From positions 715 through 64,714 of IMG/VR virus record IMGVR_UViG_3300005842_000004: DNA of 64,000 bases. One strand, given 5' to 3'. This stretch comes from a virus (taxonomy: Duplodnaviria > Caudoviricetes). Made by a program: the position numbers and the translations under genes. The notes under the pieces are model-generated. The model did no database searches. It worked only from the letters and a program-made list of their open reading frames with translations, and was not told the origin of the DNA. How positions within the stretch are numbered: the first letter of the stretch is position 1; each line of letters opens with the position of its first letter. Of this stretch, positions 751-14,075 are shown one piece after another.

Positions 751-1043
751 CCGAGCATCCCCTTGCGTGATGGGCTGAGATCCTCTATTGCAACCGTGCC
801 TTTACGCTTCGTCGCTTTCATCTTCTTGTGTCTCGCAGAGACGGCGTCTTTGAGTCGAACGAAACATGCGGCACGGTGATCGATCTCCGGCGGTGGTGGA
901 TCGCTTAAAAGTCGAATGGCTGTTTCTTGGATAATATCTTCCGGATCTTCAATTCGTCTCCGCCACAAATACAAACGGAAGCACGGGTCAGAATAAAGCA
1001 GATCAACCGGTGACGGATCGACTTCAAGCGGCGACGGGCGCAT
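747..1043 (-). CDS. Sigma-70 region 2-like small protein
   Basis: EDPEDIIQETAIRLL resembles ECF region 2 DAEDxxQE; no region 4; start reassigned to ATG 1043. Confidence 0.5.
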   Translation of the reverse strand: MRPSPLEVDPSPVDLLYSDPCFRLYLWRRRIEDPEDIIQETAIRLLSDPPPPEIDHRAACFVRLKDAVSARHKKMKATKRKGTVAIEDLSPSRKGMLG

Positions 1044-1887
1044 GCGATCTCCCGAGTTTACGGCCGAAGCTGTGCTCGTGCATCGAAGCGGCGAGAGATT
1101 CTTCGGACAGGTGAAGATAGCGCTCCGTCGTAGCGAGCGAGGAGTGGCCAAGAAGCCGCTGCACATGCCGCGGATTCATTCCTGATTCGCAGAAGAGAGT
1201 GGCGCAAGTATGCCGAAGCATGTGAGGTGTGACCCCTGGCGCATATCGGGCCAGAATGATGCGCACACTTTGCGTGGAGAGGCTCTTGCCGCATCGGTTT
1301 AGCAGCAGCGGATCAGCAGGTTTAATGCCCCGCCTTGTTGTCAGGTATTTCTTCAGCGCATCGGCAGTCTCGCGGTCTGATATAGGCACGCACCGTTGCC
1401 GATTGCCCTTACCGGTCACTCGCAGATTACCCAGCGTATGGTCGAAGTCGCCAACCCTGAGAGAACACAACTCAGCAACACGCAAGCCCGTAAAAAGCAA
1501 TAACGTTACGACCATCTTATCGAATCGATGACCAGTCAATTCCGCCAGCAGATCCCGGACGCGAGAGATCACCAGATTACGCGGAAGGCGACGCGGGACT
1601 TTGACTTTGAAATCCGATTTCCGGAAAGGTATCGCCGTGATGTGCCCAGCGTCCAATAGCCAGTTGCAAAAAGCGGACAAACTCATGAGCTTACGCAAGC
1701 GTGATGCCGGCGCGAGTGTCGAGATCGTGACCTTATAGGCGGTGAGATCAGCACGGCTGGGGATGCCGCAGCAGCCCGACGCGCTCAGAAACTGTTTGAG
1801 ATCGATTCGGTAAGCTTTCAAAGTCAAAGGAGCAAGCCCGCGATCCGCACAAGAGAGGAGATATTCGTCGGTCAAGCTGCTGCTCAC
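1024..1887 (-). CDS. Tyrosine recombinase (XerC/D-like integrase family)
   Basis: TGLRVAEL, GKGNRQR, HMLRHTCAT, LLGHSSLATTERY catalytic R-K-H-R-H-Y; GTG 1887 overlaps upstream TGA. Confidence 0.93.
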   Translation of the reverse strand: MSSSLTDEYLLSCADRGLAPLTLKAYRIDLKQFLSASGCCGIPSRADLTAYKVTISTLAPASRLRKLMSLSAFCNWLLDAGHITAIPFRKSDFKVKVPRRLPRNLVISRVRDLLAELTGHRFDKMVVTLLLFTGLRVAELCSLRVGDFDHTLGNLRVTGKGNRQRCVPISDRETADALKKYLTTRRGIKPADPLLLNRCGKSLSTQSVRIILARYAPGVTPHMLRHTCATLFCESGMNPRHVQRLLGHSSLATTERYLHLSEESLAASMHEHSFGRKLGRSHAPVAA

Positions 1888-2315
1888 TTGTCGCCATCCT
1901 TCTGGTTGTAATAAATGATCGCTGCCGCCTCCCCGTCCGCTCCACACATGATCAACCGCCGATCCCCTCCGCCTGCTCCTCTCTCCTTCTCCGGCACAAC
2001 CACATCTCTGATCTCGCCACCCGGAGCGATATAGCACGGGTGAGATCGAATCCACGTGTCGTGCCCGACCGCACCCACCCACATCGAAGCGATGATGACC
2101 AGGACGAACGCGGCAAGCCGGATGATGGCACGGGCGCGATGATGGCGGGGCAGCTCGGCAGAGGAGAGGAGGACGTGGGCGGGGTTACCGCCAGTCTGGC
2201 CCACGACCGCACGGGTTATTGTTTGATGAGCTGCGTTGCGGGTGCTGCCACTATCCCGCCGTTCTTGTCGCCATTGGTCGCGCTGTTCAATCTCGGGTCT
2301 CATGTCGGATCTCAC
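1884..2315 (-). CDS. Hypothetical membrane protein
   Basis: Hydrophobic segment IIRLAAFVLVIIASMWVGAVG; GTGA overlap with upstream stop. Confidence 0.55.
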   Translation of the reverse strand: MRSDMRPEIEQRDQWRQERRDSGSTRNAAHQTITRAVVGQTGGNPAHVLLSSAELPRHHRARAIIRLAAFVLVIIASMWVGAVGHDTWIRSHPCYIAPGGEIRDVVVPEKERGAGGGDRRLIMCGADGEAAAIIYYNQKDGDK

Positions 2316-2755
2316 TTTCTGCGATCGATGTCGTCCTGGGTCAGTTTGCCGGCGAACGGTTCCGGCGCCTTCATCCCCTTCGCCACATAGGGCATCCCGC
2401 GCTCTCGGAGACTCTCTGGCTCGATCAGGCCGACAGTCCGGGCCTCTACCCTGGCACGGGCAGCGGATCGGGCAGAGAGGGCAGCAGCAGCATCGGCGAG
2501 ATTGGCAGCTCGGGCGGATTCGGCTTGGAGCTCGCGGGCACGGACGGAGTCCGGAGAGTGGTAGACGAGAAAGGACAGAGTGGCGATGATGACGGCGCAC
2601 GACGGCGGCTGACCGGTCGGTGTTGGCGCGGGCATGATGACTGTCGATGTCGGCACGGTGACCAGATCCTTGGCAGACTGCCGGGCAAGCTTATCCCCCG
2701 TCGTGCGGATGAGGGAGAGGGCTTGGTGGCCGAGAGCGGGGCGGCGAGTGATCAT
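2312..2755 (-). CDS. Hypothetical protein
   Basis: Coupled by overlaps at both ends; one short hydrophobic stretch. Confidence 0.55.
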   Translation of the reverse strand: MITRRPALGHQALSLIRTTGDKLARQSAKDLVTVPTSTVIMPAPTPTGQPPSCAVIIATLSFLVYHSPDSVRARELQAESARAANLADAAAALSARSAARARVEARTVGLIEPESLRERGMPYVAKGMKAPEPFAGKLTQDDIDRRK

Positions 2756-3024
2756 GATGCCAATACCTCTTCCCGGTCCTCAAAAACATGGAACACGAGC
2801 GGGCCGGTTTGGAACGTTGCGATGTATACCCCGGCATCGGTTGCAGGATGACCAGTGCCGTACATTTGGATGCCGCGCTGTTGTGGTGGCCGACTCGGAT
2901 CGACAAGAGCCCACAAGCACGGATGGTGACCCTGCATTTGAATGGTGAGCATCTGCGCACCATGCGGCAAGACAACGACCTGCCTGTCGTTGATTCGCAA
3001 GAGGAACTTCCAGATGGTTTTCAT
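2752..3024 (-). CDS. Conserved phage protein (DUF7352-like)
   Basis: MKTIWKF...LWALVDP...GTGH...YIATFQ...VFHVFE pattern typical of a common small phage family. Confidence 0.7.
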   Translation of the reverse strand: MKTIWKFLLRINDRQVVVLPHGAQMLTIQMQGHHPCLWALVDPSRPPQQRGIQMYGTGHPATDAGVYIATFQTGPLVFHVFEDREEVLAS

Positions 3025-3043
3025 TTTGACGGTCTCCCTCGTT

Positions 3044-4777
3044 TTATCCGACGTATACCAGCACACCATCACGCACAGGGTCAGCTCCTCTTTTCACCCT
3101 CGTCCTTGCCACATACTCCAGATTATATTCCTGCTCCTTCTGCCATTCCTGCCGAGCAAACCCACTTGGGCACCGGCTGGAATGTTCGAACAGGATGACC
3201 CGGAACCACTCGCGGCCTTTTGCTCTATGGTATGTGCACAATGTCACACACCCCTTGAGCGTCTCACCTTCCGGCGCATCGCCAAATAGATCAGATATAT
3301 ATCTCTCGACATCCGATGTTTTGGTCGACCCTGCCCGGTTGACCTCGTTGACGATCTCGCGGATACAGTCGACCTTCTCATTGATCGACTCCAACTTGGC
3401 GCCGATGCCGTGCCGATCCTTGTCCTCGATGGCGCGGGCGTGGACTTTGGCTTGCTCGCGTTCGGCCCACTCAGAGATTCGGTCCATCAGCTCACGAGTC
3501 GAGCGGGTCTTCCATCGGCGGATCAGACTGAGCAGACCCTCTCCGATTGACCGGCCTTCAACCCGGGCAGGGATGCGGGTGCGGATGAGCTTGTAGGCGA
3601 GAGAGATCAACGGGGCCGTGTTCCGGCAAAGTATGGCGTCGAGCTCGGGCCGAAGATCGTCCAGGCAGATGGAGATGGGTTCGGCTGGGGATTCGTCAGT
3701 ACGGCGGAGGAGTGCGGGCTGATAGACGACTCGGCCATCGGGCGCGTTGTCATCACAGCGGAAGTCGGGAACGTAATCGATGACCTCATTGACGATCGAT
3801 CTCGGGCACCGGAATGTCAGGGTGAGCGGCAGAGTGCGGCACGAGAACGACTCGATTGCACGCCGCATCCCGTCAGTGTCGGCAGCGGCAAAACCGTAGA
3901 TCGATTGTTGCGGGTCGCCCACCAGACAGATCCGCCCGCCACCCGGCCTGACAAACTTCTCAATCAACTTCTGCCGGCAGGGGGAGAGATCCTGCCACTC
4001 GTCACCAATGACTAGATCCTTGGCGTATCGTACCGGGATTCGGTGCCAAAGAGGGAGAAGGATCATGTCGTTGAAATCGATCTTGTCCGTTTGATTGACT
4101 GAGATCTGGTAGACCCGAGCACAGCACCTCGCCACCGTCTGCATCTCGCGAGCGGAGTCGATATCAAGGTCTACGTCGAACCGGTCAGCCAGACTACGCC
4201 ACGTGCCGGTGTCGTCAACGGGAAGATCGGCGAACGAGCATCCGACCCCGGCTTGCTTACCGTACGATACGAGGGAGTTGATCTGCCCGCCGAAGATGCG
4301 GAATGGGTCGGATAGTCCGCCCGCCATCGATAGGTCGTCGATGATGTGCCACGTCTTCTTGTCGTCGAGCCAGGCGGGATCATTCGATGGGTTGAACCGC
4401 TTCGACATCAACCCTCGTCCGAGAGCATGGACGGTCGATGCTCGGATCGGATCGGAATAGGCGCCGGAAGATAGGCCAGACGATGTGAGCTTGCCGGTGA
4501 GGTCGGTTGCGGCTGATTTGTTGTACGCCACGAGAACGATCTCACGACCAGGAAAAGCGCGGGAGTACTCCCCGGCACCGTAAACGGCAGTGGTTGATTT
4601 GCCGACACCAGCGCGCGCCACCAGGGCGAGGTTGTCCTGGGTGTCGAGGAGGGCGGAGACGAAGGCGGATTGCTCATCGGTTGGGGTGAAGGATGATTCC
4701 ATTCTGGCGGTCATTGTGGCAGTCGCGGAGTCGACAAGGACGGTTGGCATGTCGGGGGTGAAGTTGTAGCGGTTCAC
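3044..4777 (-). CDS. SF1 UvrD/Rep-like helicase
   Basis: Walker A ARAGVGKS, DEWQD, VGDPQQSIYGF, LTLTFRCP, TYHRAKGREW, YVARTR; GTG 4777 overlaps upstream TGA. Confidence 0.92.
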   Translation of the reverse strand: MNRYNFTPDMPTVLVDSATATMTARMESSFTPTDEQSAFVSALLDTQDNLALVARAGVGKSTTAVYGAGEYSRAFPGREIVLVAYNKSAATDLTGKLTSSGLSSGAYSDPIRASTVHALGRGLMSKRFNPSNDPAWLDDKKTWHIIDDLSMAGGLSDPFRIFGGQINSLVSYGKQAGVGCSFADLPVDDTGTWRSLADRFDVDLDIDSAREMQTVARCCARVYQISVNQTDKIDFNDMILLPLWHRIPVRYAKDLVIGDEWQDLSPCRQKLIEKFVRPGGGRICLVGDPQQSIYGFAAADTDGMRRAIESFSCRTLPLTLTFRCPRSIVNEVIDYVPDFRCDDNAPDGRVVYQPALLRRTDESPAEPISICLDDLRPELDAILCRNTAPLISLAYKLIRTRIPARVEGRSIGEGLLSLIRRWKTRSTRELMDRISEWAEREQAKVHARAIEDKDRHGIGAKLESINEKVDCIREIVNEVNRAGSTKTSDVERYISDLFGDAPEGETLKGCVTLCTYHRAKGREWFRVILFEHSSRCPSGFARQEWQKEQEYNLEYVARTRVKRGADPVRDGVLVYVG

Positions 4778-6634: not shown

Positions 6635-9466
6635 CTAAGGTATCGGATACGCCTGCTTGGCCGGCCGCCAGATCGTCACCGTCGCCACGTCATCAACGAT
6701 CTCCAAGCCGATGACGACCCAATCACTCAGATTCAACTCCGCTTCCTCGACATCGAATGCTGCCTCGTGCAAGATCGACCTCGACCCTGCCAATATCCAA
6801 AGCGGAATCCCCTTCGTATCGGAGGCATATCGGTGCAGGGCCAAGAGTCGCGCTGCCTCAGTCATCGCATCTCGCCGATTGATTAATGCAGTCTGGCGGA
6901 TCTTGGATATCGCAGTCGGGTATCGTCCGGCCGCACCCGTCGCCGTGGCCTTGATCGAATAGTCTTGCTTGACCGCGGGGCGATCCAACATAGATCCGTA
7001 AAGGTATCGATCCGGATCAGACATGGCCAATGCCCCGGCAATGTTGGCAGGGTCCATCTTGCTGTCATTGTGGGCGTACAGGACGGTCCACTGCCACACT
7101 GCCGGATCATGCGATTCGGGTGTGATCTCGCCGGATTGAACATCACGATTGATTGAGTATGTGGCGTCCGGTGTACCAGTCACACCGACAAATTGCTTAA
7201 TGTAGATTGTCGACCCTGTCTTGTACGGGATGAACCCAAGCCCGCCCAAGATGATCCGCGAGATCTCTAACGCTGTCTCGCCCTGTCCGACATACCACCC
7301 GCAATCGGAAGGGTTGGCATTGAGACATGCCCGCCATGTCATCGAGTCGAGATCAGCGGCGAGATATCCAGCCAGGTAATAGCACTTCCGGGCCAAATCC
7401 GCCGCAGTCGATCGCCCACCCGTCCACGTCACGTTAGTCAGAGTCAATGCTGTCCCGCCCAGCATTGAGCTCGCGGATGAGCCGGTCGCATCGTCACAAT
7501 GCCAGCCATAGGCTAGATTCGCTTCTGACCCCGTCGCCGGCAACATGTGCAGCGCTTGCAAGTCGGATTGACTCAGCGCCCGAGCGAATACGAGCGGCTC
7601 GTCATATCGGCCTTCCGCTTGAGTGCCTGTCGTAGAGTCCGGCCGGCATCCGATCCCGAACGCGGTACGGGTTGTCGAGAATGTCCCCGTAATCGTCACC
7701 ACCGCCGATGACAGAGTGCCATTGACCCAGACAGCCAGCGTCGCCCCGGTCGTGGCGGTGTTCCCGGCTTGGTTCATATTGCGGACCAAGGCGAGAGAGT
7801 AGGTCGTCCCTTCGGATAGATTCGGCCCTGATGATGTGGTGAAGATCGTCCCGGCATCATTGATGCAGAACGCTTCGAGACAGTTTGCGCCGCCTGTTGA
7901 CTTGAGCCGGAGAATGATCGATCCGGCCGACGCTGAGGTCTGCCATCCCATGAGGACATAAGAGGCTCCGGTGTGGGACTTGGACGGGGTGTATTGACAA
8001 GTCAGAGTGCACGATCCGTTGACCGAGTTTATCGTTGCCAGGACGGTCGAAGTCGAGATGATGGACAGGGCGGAATTCCAGAAGTTATTCCCCGTCACTG
8101 TCGCTGAATACGTCCCGGACAATGCGCCGGATGTGATCTGGAATGTGCCAGCGGCGAGGTTGGGTGTCCAGATGGCGCCGAGCGCATTATGTCCAGATTG
8201 GACTTCAGATATCAGCGCTGCGCCACCATAGGACACTTCACCTATCTGATTGACCGGATCGACCCATGACACCGGGACTCTCGATACCGTGCCGAGAACG
8301 TACGGGCGGAAATTCCCTGCGATCGATTGCCAGGCCCAGCTCGCAGTATCCCAGGTTACGGATGCGTCAGCGGTACCGGTTAGAGCTGAGCCGGACTTGC
8401 GATCATGGATGGTTGACCCGACTCCCTCATCGCCCGGAAAATAAGCCAAGAGTCCGGATGCCGAGGGGAGGACAGGTTGACGGGATTCGGCATACATTGC
8501 GGCGACAGTCTTGGCCGAATTCCAGTACGTCCATCGCGATAATTTTCCCTTCAACCCTTTGCCCATCGTCAGAGAGATCGAGTTGGCTGAGGGCGATCCG
8601 GCGATAGACGATGACGATACGACCGACACCCCGTCGACTCCAATCTCTCGTGTACCCGCTGCGGTGTTGACGCTGAATGACAGATAGTGCCATTGCCGTG
8701 CGTGGAGAGGGGAAGCGATCGAGGTTAATGGAGACGGGGTCTGACCTCGAATCGTCATGCCCAACGCCACCCCGGCATCGAACACATATCCAGTCGAGCC
8801 GGCGGAGTCTTTGAAGAATAGGAATTGATTGGCAATGGTGGGATCGTCGAGGTTGACCCAGCCAGCCAAAGAGAAGGACGAGGTCTGGTCTAGATTGTCG
8901 CCGAGGTCGACTGTGCCGGATGACGTGCCGGGGAAGTACAGGCAGGAGGGGGAGTAGGTGACAGGTTGCAAAGGTTGGTCGAGACTATGACTGTCGTCCC
9001 GGACAGAGATGATTGCCTTTGCGTCGCCAACTTCGGGAACACCTATGCCCCGGAGAGAGAAAAGGGGAGAGGTGAGGACATCGGATAGATTGACTCGGGT
9101 GCCAGATGAGAGAATGCCGACAAGATAAATCTGAATCAATCTATTGTCGATCGAATTATGAATCCAAGCATCCCAATGCCCGGCGTATTCTCGGACATCG
9201 TTGATCAGCTCTAATTGTGAGTATGTGCCGAACGCTTCCGATGGATTGAGCGGGTCGATATGTTGGGATATTTGAAGCCCGGTTGCCAGGAGAGGGGGGA
9301 TGTAGGCGGCGACGGGGCCGGAAGGAGGATCGGCCCACCCGCGGCCTTGATTACCCTGGCATATCCATTCGATCGATTCAACGTTGGATGAGGAGAGATA
9401 GGCGATCGAGCAGACGACTTCTATGCGGGCAGAGGGATCGGCGAGGAGGTCGGCGAGGGTTGCCAT
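6635..9466 (-). CDS. Tail tip/receptor-binding protein with two LamG (concanavalin-like) domains
   Basis: FSLAGWVN..WHYLSFS..KGKLSRWTYWN..LLAYFPGDEG and VWVNG..GRYDEPLVFARALS..LAYGWHCDD; last structural gene. Confidence 0.8.
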   Translation of the reverse strand: MATLADLLADPSARIEVVCSIAYLSSSNVESIEWICQGNQGRGWADPPSGPVAAYIPPLLATGLQISQHIDPLNPSEAFGTYSQLELINDVREYAGHWDAWIHNSIDNRLIQIYLVGILSSGTRVNLSDVLTSPLFSLRGIGVPEVGDAKAIISVRDDSHSLDQPLQPVTYSPSCLYFPGTSSGTVDLGDNLDQTSSFSLAGWVNLDDPTIANQFLFFKDSAGSTGYVFDAGVALGMTIRGQTPSPLTSIASPLHARQWHYLSFSVNTAAGTREIGVDGVSVVSSSSIAGSPSANSISLTMGKGLKGKLSRWTYWNSAKTVAAMYAESRQPVLPSASGLLAYFPGDEGVGSTIHDRKSGSALTGTADASVTWDTASWAWQSIAGNFRPYVLGTVSRVPVSWVDPVNQIGEVSYGGAALISEVQSGHNALGAIWTPNLAAGTFQITSGALSGTYSATVTGNNFWNSALSIISTSTVLATINSVNGSCTLTCQYTPSKSHTGASYVLMGWQTSASAGSIILRLKSTGGANCLEAFCINDAGTIFTTSSGPNLSEGTTYSLALVRNMNQAGNTATTGATLAVWVNGTLSSAVVTITGTFSTTRTAFGIGCRPDSTTGTQAEGRYDEPLVFARALSQSDLQALHMLPATGSEANLAYGWHCDDATGSSASSMLGGTALTLTNVTWTGGRSTAADLARKCYYLAGYLAADLDSMTWRACLNANPSDCGWYVGQGETALEISRIILGGLGFIPYKTGSTIYIKQFVGVTGTPDATYSINRDVQSGEITPESHDPAVWQWTVLYAHNDSKMDPANIAGALAMSDPDRYLYGSMLDRPAVKQDYSIKATATGAAGRYPTAISKIRQTALINRRDAMTEAARLLALHRYASDTKGIPLWILAGSRSILHEAAFDVEEAELNLSDWVVIGLEIVDDVATVTIWRPAKQAYPIP

Positions 9467-9473
9467 CAGACGA

Positions 9474-9539
9474 TCAGTCCAGAGCCTGGACAGCGAGCAG
9501 GCGGATTGTTTCGCGGGTGAGCTTCAATTTACGCGACAT
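9474..9539 (-). CDS. 21-aa micro-ORF, lanthipeptide-leader-like peptide MSRKLKLTRETIRLLAVQALD (not in ORF track)
   Basis: GGAGG 5 nt before ATG; fills the gap between two tail genes; shares LxL(S/T)RET(I/L)RxL with the precursor at 11954-12163. Confidence 0.7.
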   Translation of the reverse strand: MSRKLKLTRETIRLLAVQALD

Positions 9540-9540
9540 G

Positions 9541-11049
9541 CTATCCTCCGCCTGATCTCTGGCCATTGTGATCGATCCAATGCAACACCATGTCCCACCT
9601 GTCTCGGGTGTGGTTCATCCCGTCAGCGAGTACGTCCGGATCGATCCCGGTAAATCGGCCTATATGTGTCTCCGCTTTCGACCCGACGACCATCCAGCGG
9701 GGACGGGTTTGCTCATCCGAATACCCCTCGGTCATGTTCGGATCGGGGATGAGCAGAGTAGGGACGCGCATGATCCCGAGTGTGCGGATGAGACGTTCGA
9801 TCGCCTGGACGGTCAATCGGGATATGCCGATGATGGTCATGTCGGCCTCGGTCCATTCCAGGGGGGATCGTCCACCGCGGAACGAGCCGGCACGGGTACG
9901 GGCAGGGGTGGAATCGGAGGCGGAGGAAAGATTCCAGCCGGAGGGGGAGGCGAGAGGGGTGATGATGGTATCGGCGGCGAGGAAACGACCGGCGTGGAAA
10001 CGGCCATCAGGATCGCCAGGATTGACAATCGACGAGTAAATGTGCGCGTTCAGCACACCGCCAATCACGCGCGTGAACGGAGTTGTCAGGTAACTATTGA
10101 ATGGTCCCGGCTCGACATACACATATGTTGTGGTTGAGATCGTAATGTCGGGTCGCAGCGTAAAGCTATCCATATCGACGTTTGGAAAATCCAGCAGTCC
10201 GGAATCATAACTATATCCCGAGTGATCGAGCACCAGCTCGACGCCGATGAAGTCACAAGCAGTCGAAGTACTCAGATGCAGCTCCATAGCTGCTGTTTGA
10301 CTCGCAAGAGCAGAGGCCAAGAAAGAATAGGTGAACACGAACCCGCCGCTCGAATTGCCCACTTCGACGTGCTCTAGATCCACGTACGATACAAGTGATA
10401 TTACCGAAGATCCCGACTGCCATATCGACGCCGTGACGCTTGGGATCAAAAGCGGGTTGTTCACATCTCGCAGATGGAAGCGGACAACGCAAGTGCCAGC
10501 TAGCGGCCGTTCGGTCGCGTAGTAATTCGCCCATGTGCCTACAATCGACGTCGCAATTGCTGGATTGGTCGGCGTCAATTTGGTCTCAGCATAGCCAACA
10601 GGCGCCGGATCATCAGGAGGATCAAGAGGATGCCCGGTGAAGTTTGCGTCAGCACCGGTGAGATTTACTTTCGAATTGAGCGTCATCGGCGGGCGGACTC
10701 GGCTGGCGATTGGGTACGTGTCGACGATGAGTCGGAACAAGTTATTGCCGTAGGTGACACCCGGCAGCACTGCGCTCGGTGTTCTTCTGTTGATTCCGAT
10801 CAAAGACACTACACCGAGATTTCTATTGACAATCACATTGTCTGATTGCGCTTGTACCCAACTGCAAGAGCTTCTATGGTTGATGGCGGACCAGTAATCG
10901 CCGAGTATGTCACCCGTCAATTTGCTCGTATCGAATCCTGGCATGGCAGACCCGGTTGTGATTGTCCACCTATCTGACGGATACAGAACTGCGCCTGTAG
11001 TCGACAAATCACGGACAGCGAAGCGGAGACCAGCAACCGGGTCAGTCAT
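9541..11049 (-). CDS. Minor/distal tail protein (putative)
   Basis: 502 aa beta-rich ORF adjacent to the LamG tail gene; positional inference. Confidence 0.65.
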   Translation of the reverse strand: MTDPVAGLRFAVRDLSTTGAVLYPSDRWTITTGSAMPGFDTSKLTGDILGDYWSAINHRSSCSWVQAQSDNVIVNRNLGVVSLIGINRRTPSAVLPGVTYGNNLFRLIVDTYPIASRVRPPMTLNSKVNLTGADANFTGHPLDPPDDPAPVGYAETKLTPTNPAIATSIVGTWANYYATERPLAGTCVVRFHLRDVNNPLLIPSVTASIWQSGSSVISLVSYVDLEHVEVGNSSGGFVFTYSFLASALASQTAAMELHLSTSTACDFIGVELVLDHSGYSYDSGLLDFPNVDMDSFTLRPDITISTTTYVYVEPGPFNSYLTTPFTRVIGGVLNAHIYSSIVNPGDPDGRFHAGRFLAADTIITPLASPSGWNLSSASDSTPARTRAGSFRGGRSPLEWTEADMTIIGISRLTVQAIERLIRTLGIMRVPTLLIPDPNMTEGYSDEQTRPRWMVVGSKAETHIGRFTGIDPDVLADGMNHTRDRWDMVLHWIDHNGQRSGGG

Positions 11050-11062
11050 AGCCTTCAGTGTA

Positions 11063-11743
11063 TCAGGGTGCGCCGCAAAGTTTCACGCCGTTCGGATCGA
11101 CACCGCATCCGATCGCGTCCCCGTGATCGTGAAGCCGGCGAAAGCACTTGCCGACTGTTCGCACGGGATCTCCGGTCATGCTGGTCACAACGCCGGCCGG
11201 GAGACAGGAAGCAGCGCACGGCGGAAGGAACGCCACGTACTCATCATATTGCGGACAGTCCGTCGTGTACCCGACGATATCGACAACGTAATCCGCCGCT
11301 GCTGTCGAATAGAGCGACACATCTGCCGGGAAGTTGAAGTCAGCCAGTGTGATCGGCGCCGTGACCACATTGCCGTTCTCGTTCGCAGTCATGAGCAGAG
11401 TGATCGCGAGAGGCTGAGACGGCGCATTCCACGGCCACAGGCGGGCGTATCCGGCAGCGCTAGGGTTGACCACGGACAGGCCGACGAGGACACCGGTTGC
11501 GTACTTTGGCACACCGCAACCGGCCTCGCCGCCCTGGTTGGTTCCGGCGTCTTCTCGCACACGGAAACTCATCGTGCTCCCCGCCGTCATCCGCGCATTG
11601 ATCAGCCGGGTATCGAGCACTCGGCACGGACGCGGAAGGAGGATGACGTCATCTGCACTCGCCCGATCCACCCCAGCGAGCGCCATGACTCCGAATCCGA
11701 GAACCACCACCAACTTCATCTTCATCCTCATCTTGAGATTCAT
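11063..11743 (-). CDS. Secreted protein with PCRxxDTR beta-sandwich module
   Basis: Signal peptide KLVVVLGFGVMALAGVDRASA; PCRVLDTR..CGVP..ATGVLVGLSVVNP..GYARLWP..VVDIVGY; Cys-rich C-terminus. Confidence 0.8.
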   Translation of the reverse strand: MNLKMRMKMKLVVVLGFGVMALAGVDRASADDVILLPRPCRVLDTRLINARMTAGSTMSFRVREDAGTNQGGEAGCGVPKYATGVLVGLSVVNPSAAGYARLWPWNAPSQPLAITLLMTANENGNVVTAPITLADFNFPADVSLYSTAAADYVVDIVGYTTDCPQYDEYVAFLPPCAASCLPAGVVTSMTGDPVRTVGKCFRRLHDHGDAIGCGVDPNGVKLCGAP

Positions 11744-11953
11744 AAGCTCTGATCCCCATCTCGCCCCATTATCGGGGCCGTTATCTACTACATTAACTTT
11801 CTTGCGTGAGCGTCGGACCGAGAGCGCAAGACCTGATATCCCGGTCCGACGAGTGAGAGCGTTTGCAGCGGGGTCAGTTCACCAACTGAGACCGTTCCAC
11901 CTTTCCACACTTTGATTTATCCGGATCACCTCCCAATTAAATAAATGTTGGGT

Positions 11954-12163
11954 TCAGATGCAACCAGTTCTTGCGGCAGAATCGACATGCCCACAAACAG
12001 TGAAGACGCCAGTAGGACAATTGCAATTGGTGTTGTTGCACGTCTCGGTACACCAATCAGTCGTCGTACAGCCGTCTTGATTGCTCTCGCCTCCAACGAC
12101 TCGGCGTAGAGAGGATTCGGTGAGATTTCTCAGCGTCTCACGACTAAGAGTCAGCCGCCGCAT
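11954..12163 (-). CDS. Lanthipeptide/RiPP-type precursor peptide (69 aa)
   Basis: SD AGGAGGTG before ATG 12163; leader MRRLTLSRETLRNL...VVGG then core with 7 Cys, 9 Thr, 2 Ser. Confidence 0.85.
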   Translation of the reverse strand: MRRLTLSRETLRNLTESSLRRVVGGESNQDGCTTTDWCTETCNNTNCNCPTGVFTVCGHVDSAARTGCI

Positions 12164-12222
12164 TTCGCCACCTCCTGGCATTTCCCTGAGACCGGCCGTC
12201 TATTCGTCCGGTCGGCGATCAA

Positions 12223-12273
12223 ACAATACCGCGTATCCTCGGCGGTTGTCAACCGGGCGAATAGAGCGTAAGT
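12223..12273 (-). promoter_or_regulatory. Promoter/operator of the precursor gene; copy 1 of a 33-bp element
   Basis: TTGACA-18-TATTGT; CGGTTGTCAACCG at 12243-12255; 12241-12273 matches 45957-45989 at 31/33. Confidence 0.75.
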
Positions 12274-12282
12274 GTCCAGGCC

Positions 12283-12308
12283 AAAAAGAGCCCCCGTCTC
12301 CGGGAGCT
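12283..12308 (-). terminator. Intrinsic terminator after endolysin
   Basis: AGCTCCCG-GAGA-CGGGGGCT stem followed by CTTTTT. Confidence 0.75.
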
Positions 12309-12403
12309 GTCGAAGGAGGAAACCCCTGACCGAGATGATCTCGGTTACCGGAGTCGCCACAAGGGAGAATAGCACAGTCAGCAGTGGCACAGTCAGCGCA
12401 CGG

Positions 12404-12865
12404 TCAGACAGGGACAGAGGGGAATGCATCCTGGACAAACAGTGCCATCTCCGCCGCACGTCGAGACATGAGACCTCTCAGCGGCTTATGATTCTGATTG
12501 ATCCACAAGCCGAACCCGCGCCACGCCGCAATGTAGTCTTTCGACCGCAGTGCTGATCCGATCGTCCCTATCCTGTTGAGCGTGTCCGGCCCGACATTGA
12601 ACACCAGCGACACGAGCGCATCAAACATCGACTGAGATAGAGGAGTGCCGAGGGATATGATTTCGTTGACGGTCTGCTCAGCGTCGATCAGATCCTGTTG
12701 CAGCCAGATTAGGGCTTGGGTCCGGGTGCACGTATCCCCCATCTTGACGCCGCGGGTATGGCCGAATGCGATCGTGGGCACATCATCCGCGGTTGGCTTA
12801 TACGCATGATCAGCGTACGTCTCGAATGACTTGATCAGATCGATTCCGCGTGTTCCGGTTTTCAT
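12404..12865 (-). CDS. Endolysin, GH24 phage lysozyme
   Basis: GIDLIKSFE..AY..TIAFGHT..QSMFDALVSLVFNVG..GLMSRRAAE; real start ATG 12865 overlapping holin stop. Confidence 0.93.
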   Translation of the reverse strand: MKTGTRGIDLIKSFETYADHAYKPTADDVPTIAFGHTRGVKMGDTCTRTQALIWLQQDLIDAEQTVNEIISLGTPLSQSMFDALVSLVFNVGPDTLNRIGTIGSALRSKDYIAAWRGFGLWINQNHKPLRGLMSRRAAEMALFVQDAFPSVPV

Positions 12866-13293
12866 CCTTTCCTCGCAATCAGCTCTTCCAACAGTGCCAA
12901 CCGATGCGCCGACTCCGCCCGATCCACCCGCGACAACTCCTTGACCGCAGCGACACTCTCCTCCAATACCTGCGCTTTGATCCGGAGTACACTCGCTGCC
13001 TCGGCATTTACCCGTGCCGCCTCCGCGCTGATCCTCGCCGACTCCTGCAACCCATTGACGATGTCGCGGAGGGTTGACCCGGAATCTGATTTGAACTGTG
13101 CGGCAATCTCCTTGACCACATCGAACAATTCCGGATTGTCTTTGAACCGATCGGTTATCGTGATGAGCAGAGGGATGACATCGTGAGCGTAGAGGATGAG
13201 ACGATCGAGCGGGCGGATGAGTTTGGAATAGATCACGGAGCAAGCGCCGAGGAGAGCACCCGCCCCAATGATCCACTGGAACCAAGTCGGCAC
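12862..13293 (-). CDS. Putative holin-like membrane protein
   Basis: N-terminal TM WIIGAGALLGACSVIY then coiled coil; coupled to endolysin. Confidence 0.6.
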   Translation of the reverse strand: MPTWFQWIIGAGALLGACSVIYSKLIRPLDRLILYAHDVIPLLITITDRFKDNPELFDVVKEIAAQFKSDSGSTLRDIVNGLQESARISAEAARVNAEAASVLRIKAQVLEESVAAVKELSRVDRAESAHRLALLEELIARKG

Positions 13294-13295
13294 GG

Positions 13296-13412
13296 TTAGT
13301 GATCACCCGACCCGGCCGGTGGCAAGACTTGTGCGGCCGGATCAGAGGTCTGAGGAGGAGTGAAGGTGACACTGGCCGGCGATGGTGGCATGATCGGAGC
13401 GACGAGAGACAT
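13296..13412 (-). CDS. Possible 38-aa Pro-rich protein (not in ORF track)
   Basis: MSLVAPIMPPSPASVTFTPPQTSDPAAQVLPPAGSGDH; GAGGGG upstream; fills the gap exactly. Confidence 0.4.
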   Translation of the reverse strand: MSLVAPIMPPSPASVTFTPPQTSDPAAQVLPPAGSGDH

Positions 13413-13417
13413 CGGGA

Positions 13418-13702
13418 TCACCCCTCTTCAGACGTATCGAGCCCAAGCGCCGCGTAGATGTCGATCAGTTCGCGCACAGCATGCCGTTTGAGTTTGGCAA
13501 GCCGGTCGACGCACTTTTGATGATCGGTGGCGACAATCTGTGCGTTGGTCGGCGGCAATTCCCGCGGCACCAACACGGCCACCTCTCCGGCGATCTTCTT
13601 CCCTGCATCGAGCGAGACCCCGAAGTGCTCACTGATCTGTACCGCCATCGCTTCCGGCGGACAACACACACCCGACAGACAACAAACGTGACCGTTGCTC
13701 AT
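13418..13702 (-). CDS. Hypothetical protein with N-terminal CCxxGxCCPP
   Basis: SD GGAGG; tight packing. Confidence 0.7.
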   Translation of the reverse strand: MSNGHVCCLSGVCCPPEAMAVQISEHFGVSLDAGKKIAGEVAVLVPRELPPTNAQIVATDHQKCVDRLAKLKRHAVRELIDIYAALGLDTSEEG

Positions 13703-13706
13703 GTTT

Positions 13707-14057
13707 CTACCTATCCTCCTTGGGCGTAGACGGTGGATACCTGATCTTGATTCCGGCCTGGGACATGGAATACTTCAGGGTGGCAATCTCATACGCTTCG
13801 ACATTCAGCAAGCGGTCGAGACGATTGATGGAGTCGGTCAGAGTGCGGTTGCGATCGTCATCGATCTTGATCTGTGCCTCTTGGCGGGTCTTCTGATCTC
13901 TCATATCATAGCGGAGATCGCTCAGCTCTTGACGGGCAGACAGTGCCAGGTTGACAATGAACAGGCATATTGCAGCCACAGCGCCGACCATCGAGCAGAC
14001 CAGCTTGAATCCGAACGTGAGCCTGTCTGCGGGCATTTCCTTAATGTCGTCCGGCAT
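13707..14057 (-). CDS. Membrane protein with coiled coil (holin/spanin-like candidate)
   Basis: TM LVCSMVGAVAAICLFIVNLAL then coiled coil; SD GGAGG before ATG 14057. Confidence 0.6.
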   Translation of the reverse strand: MPDDIKEMPADRLTFGFKLVCSMVGAVAAICLFIVNLALSARQELSDLRYDMRDQKTRQEAQIKIDDDRNRTLTDSINRLDRLLNVEAYEIATLKYSMSQAGIKIRYPPSTPKEDR

Positions 14058-14075
14058 GATTGATCGGCCTCCCAC

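Follow-up and report, generated by a model that had tools for sequence, protein, structure and literature searches.

A precursor-like peptide gene and its putative control elements

The 64,000-nucleotide stretch of viral DNA analysed here (hereafter, the window) spans bases 715-64714 of the IMG/VR record IMGVR_UViG_3300005842_000004, which is 64,714 bp long, carries direct terminal repeats and has a CheckV completeness estimate of 100%. All sizeable genes of the window lie on its minus strand, and so does a small gene whose product resembles the precursors of lanthipeptides. The longest frame of this gene (11954..12181) would encode 75 amino acids, and an internal ATG at 12163 gives a 69-residue peptide (12163..11954) that ends at a TGA stop codon (11954..11956, minus strand). 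The upstream ATG at 12181 has a weak, badly spaced ribosome-binding site; the internal one is preceded at a distance of 7 nt by the Shine-Dalgarno sequence AGGAGG (12171..12176, minus strand), the N-termini of the family members described below agree with the shorter form, and ATG 12163 appears to be the best start. The 69-residue peptide is composed of a leader (residues 1-25, MRRLTLSRETLRNLTESSLRRVVGG; 12089..12163, minus strand) with an LxLxRx5L motif and a Gly-Gly end, followed by a 44-residue core (11957..12088, minus strand) containing 7 Cys, 9 Thr and 2 Ser. The leader motif reads L4-x-L6-x-R8-x5-L14, i.e., LxLxKx5L with arginine in place of lysine. A previous reading of the locus made from its letters alone (the sequence-only reading) had described a 69-residue peptide with a lanthipeptide-type leader, a Gly-Gly cleavage site and a core of this composition, and the sequence bears out both the frame and the layout.

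The peptide gene lies downstream of the endolysin gene (12404..12868, minus strand; PF00959 at 1.9e-27 and phrog_7 at 6.4e-38), from which it is separated by several control elements. A site search located a terminator-like hairpin (12289..12308, minus strand; an 8-bp stem with 6 G-C pairs and a T-run) that starts 96 nt past the endolysin stop and splits the peptide unit from the late operon. Beyond it stands a sigma-70-like promoter, TTGACA-18 nt-TATTGT (12223..12252, minus strand), with 10 of 12 consensus matches, which scores best among the four promoter-like sites of a 2.5-kb region in which 1.0 would be expected; the terminator and promoter calls are both consensus matches. The promoter is bracketed by a 14-nt inverted repeat (12199-12212 / 12252-12265; 93% complementary), one arm of which abuts the -35 hexamer while the other lies just past the -10 element, and the repeat (12199-12265) is a possible operator. 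On the other side of the gene, the 210-nt spacer contains a hairpin found by folding (11811..11851, minus strand; a 13-bp stem, no U-tract) that may end or stabilise the transcript. Folding of the whole spacer was no better than that of shuffled sequences (z = -1.0), and an Rfam search of positions 11000-13000 returned nothing except one chance-level microRNA match. The terminator, promoter with operator and strong Shine-Dalgarno sequence listed in the sequence-only reading were thus all recovered on the minus strand. Judging by its genes, the record is a complete siphovirus-like phage, and a temperate one because it encodes a tyrosine integrase (1024..2082, minus strand; PF00589 at 4.9e-32). 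Given a promoter of its own, a terminator toward the upstream operon and a temperate carrier, the peptide gene is most likely a phage moron, in keeping with its earlier description as a self-contained unit of this kind.

No maturation gene accompanies the peptide gene. When the whole 64,714-bp record was searched with hidden Markov models (HMMs) for LanC, LanB_N, C39, radical SAM, YcaO and DUF4135 (LanM), all six gave 0 matches; as positive controls, the LanB, LanC and DUF4135 models found their targets in Acidobacteriota genomes, and those for C39, radical SAM and YcaO in control genomes. Likewise, a tblastn search of the phage with LanB, LanC, LanM and peptidase-containing ATP-binding cassette transporter (PCAT) proteins from Acidobacteriota, Actinomycetota and Planctomycetota gave a best E of 0.13, and a Pfam scan of 20 larger phage ORFs (open reading frames) revealed no maturation enzyme. 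The claim of an enzyme-free window therefore holds, and the possibility, raised at the same time, that the enzymes reside in a missing part of the genome finds no support in the complete record.

An orphan phage precursor is a rare trait, yet not a one-off, because two more complete phages carry such a peptide. Two further IMG/VR records contain the DNA pattern of the leader; they measure 97 kb and 53 kb and have a completeness rating of 100%, and in each of them a 68-residue peptide of the same build is encoded among phage genes (portal and homing-endonuclease genes in one of the two contexts, RecT-like and exonuclease genes in the other). By HMM search, both phages are without LanB_N, LanC, DUF4135, C39, radical SAM and YcaO. 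The variant of the DNA pattern that encodes lysine had 0 matches in viral contigs. Neither the endolysin nor the 502-residue neighbour led to a syntenic phage relative: the endolysin search returned 54 loci, none of which matched a leader HMM built from 108 genome-borne (bacterial) leaders, and in the best of them (57% identical), which lies on a 6.3-kb contig, no peptide gene follows; the search with the 502-residue neighbour returned no loci. A word-indexed protein search with the phage peptide recovered the query alone, exact peptide patterns found no relative in IMG/VR, and tblastn of the peptide against 50,697 GenBank phage records gave no match at E<=1.

Family membership and bacterial relatives

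The phage peptide matched NF038153, the NCBIfam model of a class I lanthipeptide leader (lant_leader_L1a), with 17.2 bits (E=0.004) over residues 9-31 of the 75-residue form, which correspond to residues 3-25 of the 69-residue peptide. A phmmer search of 1.84 billion cluster representatives yielded 16 proteins at E<=1e-3, namely the query itself, 13 small peptides, a 168-residue two-unit protein and an unrelated 603-residue repeat protein. The 13 small relatives, of 54-91 residues, combine an M-(K/R)n-L-x-L-x-(R/K)-E-T-L-R-x-L...G-G leader with Cys/Thr-rich cores, and in the 14-sequence family alignment L4, L6, L14, G24 and G25 are invariant. All 14 aligned peptides matched NF038153 at E<=1 (best 1.2e-6) and seven of them also matched the sister model L1b. 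The lanthipeptide-type leader of the sequence-only reading is thus recovered by HMM search, at a score below the cut-off, together with 13/13 of the small relatives. All phmmer relatives are metagenomic, and one had been labelled 'natural product precursor' by a source. The resemblance extends into the core in some cases: the core start is common to the phage peptide and two relatives (P0003 and P0004), and a third (P0016) also has its C-terminal CGxVxSAxxxGCI motif. Pfam and PHROGs gave no match to the phage peptide. As a separate observation, the metagenomic 168-residue protein (P0002) consists of two tandem leader-plus-core units in a single ORF.

The leader HMM assigned 36.7 bits to the phage ORF, compared with a best score of 14.6 in 100 Markov-shuffled windows. 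The ORF thus exceeds chance and appears to be a genuine precursor of the LxLx(K/R)x5L...GG leader type, and by its sequence it would behave as a class I LanA with an L1a-type leader. Its core is in line with the composition of the family, with 15.9% Cys and 25% Ser+Thr against means of 16.5% and 25.2% in 108 genome-borne cores, whose medians are 32 residues, 5 Cys and 8 Ser+Thr. Ser+Thr at least equals Cys in 106 of these 108 cores, and in the phage core the numbers are 11 and 7. A WCTETC segment in the phage core resembles WCTDTC and WCTKTC in two LanC-adjacent precursors (L078 and L097).

To characterize the bacterial relatives, each GTDB species was represented by one genome, and a degenerate DNA pattern encoding L-x-L-x-RETLR-x-L-(9 aa)-GG was matched against this set, which gave at least 120 stretches. 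Among the matches listed, 62 come from Thermoanaerobaculia metagenome-assembled genomes (MAGs), 39 from other Acidobacteriota and 19 from other groups (Actinomycetota, Myxococcota and Planctomycetota included), at least three of these 19 being plain chance hits. With the chance hits L005, L030 and L050 dropped, ORFs were screened in 8-kb blocks around 117 loci. Among these listed matches, 13 of the 117 blocks contain a synthetase gene (LanB and/or LanC in 11, LanM in 2) and three a C39 PCAT exporter; by a rough estimate inferred from gene counts, about 2% of random 8-kb blocks in such a genome would contain a synthetase. A lack of similarity to precursors from clusters for peptides that are made by the ribosome and then modified post-translationally (RiPPs) had been named in advance as an argument against a lanthipeptide-type precursor; such similarity is present, with relatives that sit in LanB/LanC/PCAT clusters. 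Ser/Thr kinases encoded near 11 precursor loci were considered as class III/IV synthetases and rejected as chance neighbours: in the six examined the kinase domain is N-terminal and none has a LanC-like domain, five carrying assorted domains or repeats (TPR, PD40, TonB_C, PEGA, others) and that of L081 no further Pfam domain.

The L1a leader type goes together with lanthipeptide enzymes. Thermoanaerobaculia were sampled evenly with 121 genomes, of which 40 encode a LanC-like domain and 10 show an NF038153 match (E<=0.001), and this conclusion is drawn because all 10 NF038153-positive genomes have a LanC-like domain, compared with 30 of the 111 others (Fisher p = 6.7e-6). The distances involved differ between genomes. 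In the six with a single hit, the NF038153 match lies 0.3-3.4 kb from a LanC of ~440 residues; in the four with 3-13 hits each, LanC adjoins only 3 of 36 hits. Five large Acidobacteriota genomes show 17-29 leader hits each (E<=0.01) against 2-3 LanB genes, and for nearly all of their precursors the distance from LanB amounts to tens to hundreds of kilobases. In some lineages, then, most precursors may already be orphans that rely on enzymes acting in trans, much as in the prochlorosins. The 'orphan' status that the sequence-only reading gave to the phage gene stands insofar as the phage has no enzymes; it is less exceptional than was assumed, the precursors of some Acidobacteriota being themselves mostly far from synthetases.

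Several features of these bacterial genomes deserve mention in their own right. Soil genomes with scattered L1a precursors comprise G001-G005 (reached via L014, L035, L010, L012 and L100), G181 and G466. Up to 13 LanC-like domains were counted in G001; five lie in frames of ~1,064-1,138 residues, and the annotated LanM-sized frame (L181) is a LanM with DUF4135 and a LanC-like domain. In the same genome (L182; G001:C1:1912000-1923000), an L1a precursor lies between two LanC paralogues, accompanied by an unusual tailoring set of an RPE65-type dioxygenase, an FAD-dependent halogenase-like protein and a methyltransferase. On a 3.5-kb Thermoanaerobaculia contig (L018), a precursor gene (943-1104) is found ~1 kb from an integrase gene (2052-3437) whose product is 34% identical to the phage integrase (E=3e-32), which hints that mobile elements may carry such precursors in bacteria too. 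In the open-access literature searched, a single paper was found to name Thermoanaerobaculia together with lanthipeptides.

Gene content and composition of the phage

Recognised genes of the phage encode a DNA polymerase, helicases, a ParB-like protein, the large terminase (TerL), portal, head protease, major head protein and a 2010-residue tape-measure protein; further recognised products are a 943-residue protein with a lectin fold (Laminin_G_3) and a UvrD-type helicase. The window contains no tRNA genes. Gene order is unusual in the region 6635-14075 (minus strand), where the tape-measure gene is directly followed by ORFs of 122 and 94 residues, a 143-residue ORF (matching phrog_8572, of unknown function) and the endolysin gene, and where the genes for the 502-residue and 943-residue proteins come later than the lysis genes and the peptide unit. 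The stretch was found in one public DNA run, a rhizosphere metagenome that is probably its source, and the public runs listed as holding it include no RNA runs.

The next gene after the peptide gene encodes a protein of 226 residues with an apparent N-terminal signal sequence (11063..11743, minus strand) and could belong to the same unit. This protein has no Pfam or PHROG family. Distant copies of its central domain (29-35% identity) occur seven to eight times in each of two Thermoanaerobaculia genomes, and the ESM-Atlas clusters nearest to it are mostly from Acidobacteriota, which we take as a lead only. An immunity or accessory role is possible for this neighbour.

A second candidate is a 21-residue mini-ORF, MSRKLKLTRETIRLLAVQALD (9474..9539, minus strand), that was picked up by the leader HMM and by a motif match and holds the N-terminal leader motif only. 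It starts one base past the stop of the 502-residue gene, 4 nt after the sequence GGAGGA, and ends 7 nt ahead of the ATG of the 943-residue gene. Its leader-HMM score of 10.7 bits was equalled in 7 of 100 shuffled windows and its motif, with at most one mismatch, in 5 of 300 shuffles; it has no NCBIfam match, and at the DNA level it does not resemble the 5' end of the peptide gene. Weakly supported as it is, the mini-ORF may be what remains of a second precursor, or it may encode a peptide that consists of a leader only.

The composition of the peptide gene (GC 52.9%; GC at third codon positions, GC3, 51.4%) can be set beside that of the phage, with a GC of 57.3% and a GC3 of 59-75% in eight long genes, and beside that of 108 bacterial precursor genes (medians 66.2% and GC3 84%), all of which exceed it in both GC and GC3. 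Recent capture and assembly chimerism are argued against because the GC of the gene fits the phage and lies below that of the 108 bacterial precursors.

Proposed maturation in trans, its rivals and known systems

We lean, with modest confidence, towards reading the gene as a moron for lysogenic conversion, with host enzymes maturing its product in trans. The peptide would be made, in a lysogen or at a late stage of infection, from its own, possibly operator-controlled, promoter, and its leader would be recognised by a host synthetase, most likely a class I LanB together with LanC, possibly a class II LanM. Thr and Ser residues of the core would then be dehydrated, the 7 Cys would close thioether rings, and a host ABC exporter with a C39 peptidase would cut after Gly24-Gly25 and secrete the 44-residue product. 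In this manner, the phage would add one new core to a host system already serving many scattered precursors in trans, and the most likely pay-off would be that the secreted peptide, being antagonistic or protective, brings about lysogenic conversion. Reliance on host enzymes had been proposed in the sequence-only reading too, with killing, signalling, a superinfection block or a decoy as candidate roles, among which the present data do not single one out. We infer maturation by host enzymes, export and activity from the family membership of the peptide and the arrangement of the bacterial family, with the host likewise tentative.

Several observations weigh against the proposed maturation in trans. 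The 17.2 bits of the phage peptide lie under the curated NF038153 cut-off of 22, and in the strict sense the peptide falls outside the L1a class on two defining features, since it does not reach the HMM cut-off and is not clustered with LanB and LanC; the cut-off appears strict for this clade because a LanB-adjacent precursor (L184) scores only 15.4 bits, compared with 30.2 for a LanC-flanked one. TIGR04149, a leader model of radical-SAM RiPPs, is matched by 6 of the 14 aligned peptides (best E 8.8e-8). Because ~89% of the precursor loci among the matches listed have no synthetase in their 8-kb block, trans maturation is itself something that we infer for the bacteria, and with LanM at 2 of the 13 enzyme-adjacent loci among these matches the class of the enzyme is left ambiguous. 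No gene of the phage was recognised as an immunity gene. The clues to the host, moreover, are in conflict between Acidobacteriota and Planctomycetota. Acidobacteriota are indicated by the taxonomic spread of the leader pattern, by the nearest clusters of the 226-residue neighbour and by the frequency of NF038153 matches, which are about ten times commoner in Acidobacteriota than in Planctomycetota: 11 of 241 genomes in the former sample, with the seed genome and the unpublished G157 counted in, against 2 of 241 in the latter, where the seed genome is likewise counted. Conversely, the GC of the phage is 5-10 points under that of most Acidobacteriota loci, and distant relatives of TerL and of the major capsid protein (MCP) are more frequent in Planctomycetota than in Acidobacteriota: TerL relatives occur in 18 of 251 Planctomycetota genomes (best 41% identity), 5 of 301 Acidobacteriota (<=36%) and 2 of 251 Myxococcota (<=36%), and, of the 10 genomes that had the best TerL matches, three contain MCP relatives (28-31% identity), all of them genomes of the Planctomycetota sample. 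TerL at 30-41% identity is no indicator of the host, because the TerL of GenBank Proteobacteria phages scores about as well (33-34%). An L1a leader hit was obtained in none of those 10 genomes, and the DNA around the integrase gene gave only 31-51-bp matches, with E of 2.5e-6 or weaker, in 401 Acidobacteriota genomes.

Among the rival explanations, it seems unlikely, though worth some weight, that the peptide is exported and cut at Gly-Gly by a host C39 transporter without acquiring lanthionine rings, as a disulfide-rich bacteriocin or a signal like the double-glycine pheromones. A Gly-Gly leader alone specifies only a C39 exporter, most bacterial relatives among the matches listed are not beside a synthetase, and seven Cys could form disulfides. 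Their odd number suits disulfides poorly, however, and the excess of Ser+Thr over Cys or its equality with it in 106 of 108 cores is a need of thioether chemistry; in addition, leader hits are confined to LanC-bearing genomes in the Thermoanaerobaculia sample (10/10 versus 30/111 others), and the bacteriocin Gly-Gly signal model TIGR01847 has no match to the phage peptide at E<=10 and matches only one of the 14 relatives (E=0.12). Modification by another class of host RiPP enzyme that reads the same leader, for instance a radical SAM maturase of the TIGR04149 type, is very improbable in our view. The matches of 6 of the 14 family members to that model would fit it, but the phage peptide itself reaches only 7.7 bits (E=3.3; cut-off 25 bits), and the 10 annotated neighbour clusters that recur most often around the 117 listed loci include no radical SAM gene.

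In a further rival explanation the peptide is a decoy. It would occupy the LanB/LanC or the exporter of the host and thereby block host lanthipeptides, for example anti-phage ones; in its fuller form, peptide and mini-ORF together would saturate LanB/LanC and the C39 exporter and silence a phage-restricting lanthipeptide, so that substrate mimicry would serve as counter-defence. For Actinobacteria, anti-phage clusters of class I lanthipeptides have been described (bioRxiv 10.1101/2024.06.26.600839; PMC12360287), and the mini-ORF provides a second phage ORF with the leader motif only. We nonetheless regard both forms as improbable: a decoy does not need a long core that fits the composition and motifs of the family so well, shuffled sequences reach the scores of the mini-ORF too readily, anti-phage lanthipeptides are not known in the candidate host phyla, and the unit stands under its own promoter, which is not clearly early-gene control. 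Likelier than substrate mimicry is that temperate phages act as vehicles by which Acidobacteriota chromosomes are seeded with new cores, and the scattered precursor libraries of this phylum would then be accounted for. That the gene is a mere passenger, taken up from a host, that the phage neither uses nor benefits from, is likewise doubtful. No close phage relatives in which conservation could be traced were found, but the frame is intact, with a strong ribosome-binding site and a promoter, its GC and GC3 fit the phage and not any of the 108 bacterial precursor genes, and the same kind of gene is present in two unrelated complete phages.

If the proposed route is correct, a precursor gene of ~200 bp that relies on host enzymes would unite phage-borne bacteriocins with promiscuous trans-acting synthetases, and it would be both the cheapest viral means of altering the secreted chemistry of a host and a route for new cores to spread between genomes. 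Soil Thermoanaerobaculia and other Acidobacteriota also turn out to have large libraries of precursors, most of them scattered. Prophages with complete RiPP clusters and the trans maturation of scattered precursors are already known; what appears new here is a precursor-only phage gene, and we found no precursor-only RiPP genes in phages in the open-access literature.

The nearest counterparts differ in instructive ways. Class I LanAs with an LxLxKx5L motif instead of FxLD, leaders ending in Gly-Gly and a C39 protease in the cluster are described by Walker et al. 2020 (PMC7268733). The phage peptide shares with the pinensin-type class I LanA of Bacteroidota (NF038153) the leader motif and its spacing, the Gly-Gly end and a core rich in Cys and Ser/Thr, and its relatives, like pinensin-type LanAs, occur beside LanB, LanC and a C39 transporter. 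Unlike them, it has Arg for Lys, scores below the HMM cut-off, resides in a phage without LanB, LanC or transporter, and has its nearest relatives in Acidobacteriota MAGs and soil metagenomes rather than in Bacteroidota. The prochlorosins (ProcA/ProcM) of marine cyanobacteria combine a conserved leader and hypervariable cores with scattered precursors far from one promiscuous synthetase, and the 17-29 leaders against 2-3 LanB genes in Acidobacteriota follow a similar pattern. Prochlorosins have leaders of the Nif11-type family, depend on a class II enzyme and are chromosomal, whereas the extra precursor described here rides on a phage. Reports on ProcM describe it as substrate-tolerant (PMC10306099; PMC9872173). 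The anti-phage class I lanthipeptide clusters of Actinobacteria termed 'Lanthiphage' (bioRxiv 10.1101/2024.06.26.600839) offer another case in which, by their description, class I lanthipeptides meet the conflict between phage and host; compared on that description, they are host-encoded, complete and from another phylum. Finally, sublancin, encoded on SPbeta of Bacillus subtilis, is described as a secreted modified peptide that a temperate phage gives to its lysogen (bioRxiv 10.1101/2020.10.01.322628). According to that account SPbeta encodes the whole pathway, with precursor, modifying enzymes, transporter and immunity, whereas the phage described here carries the precursor only.

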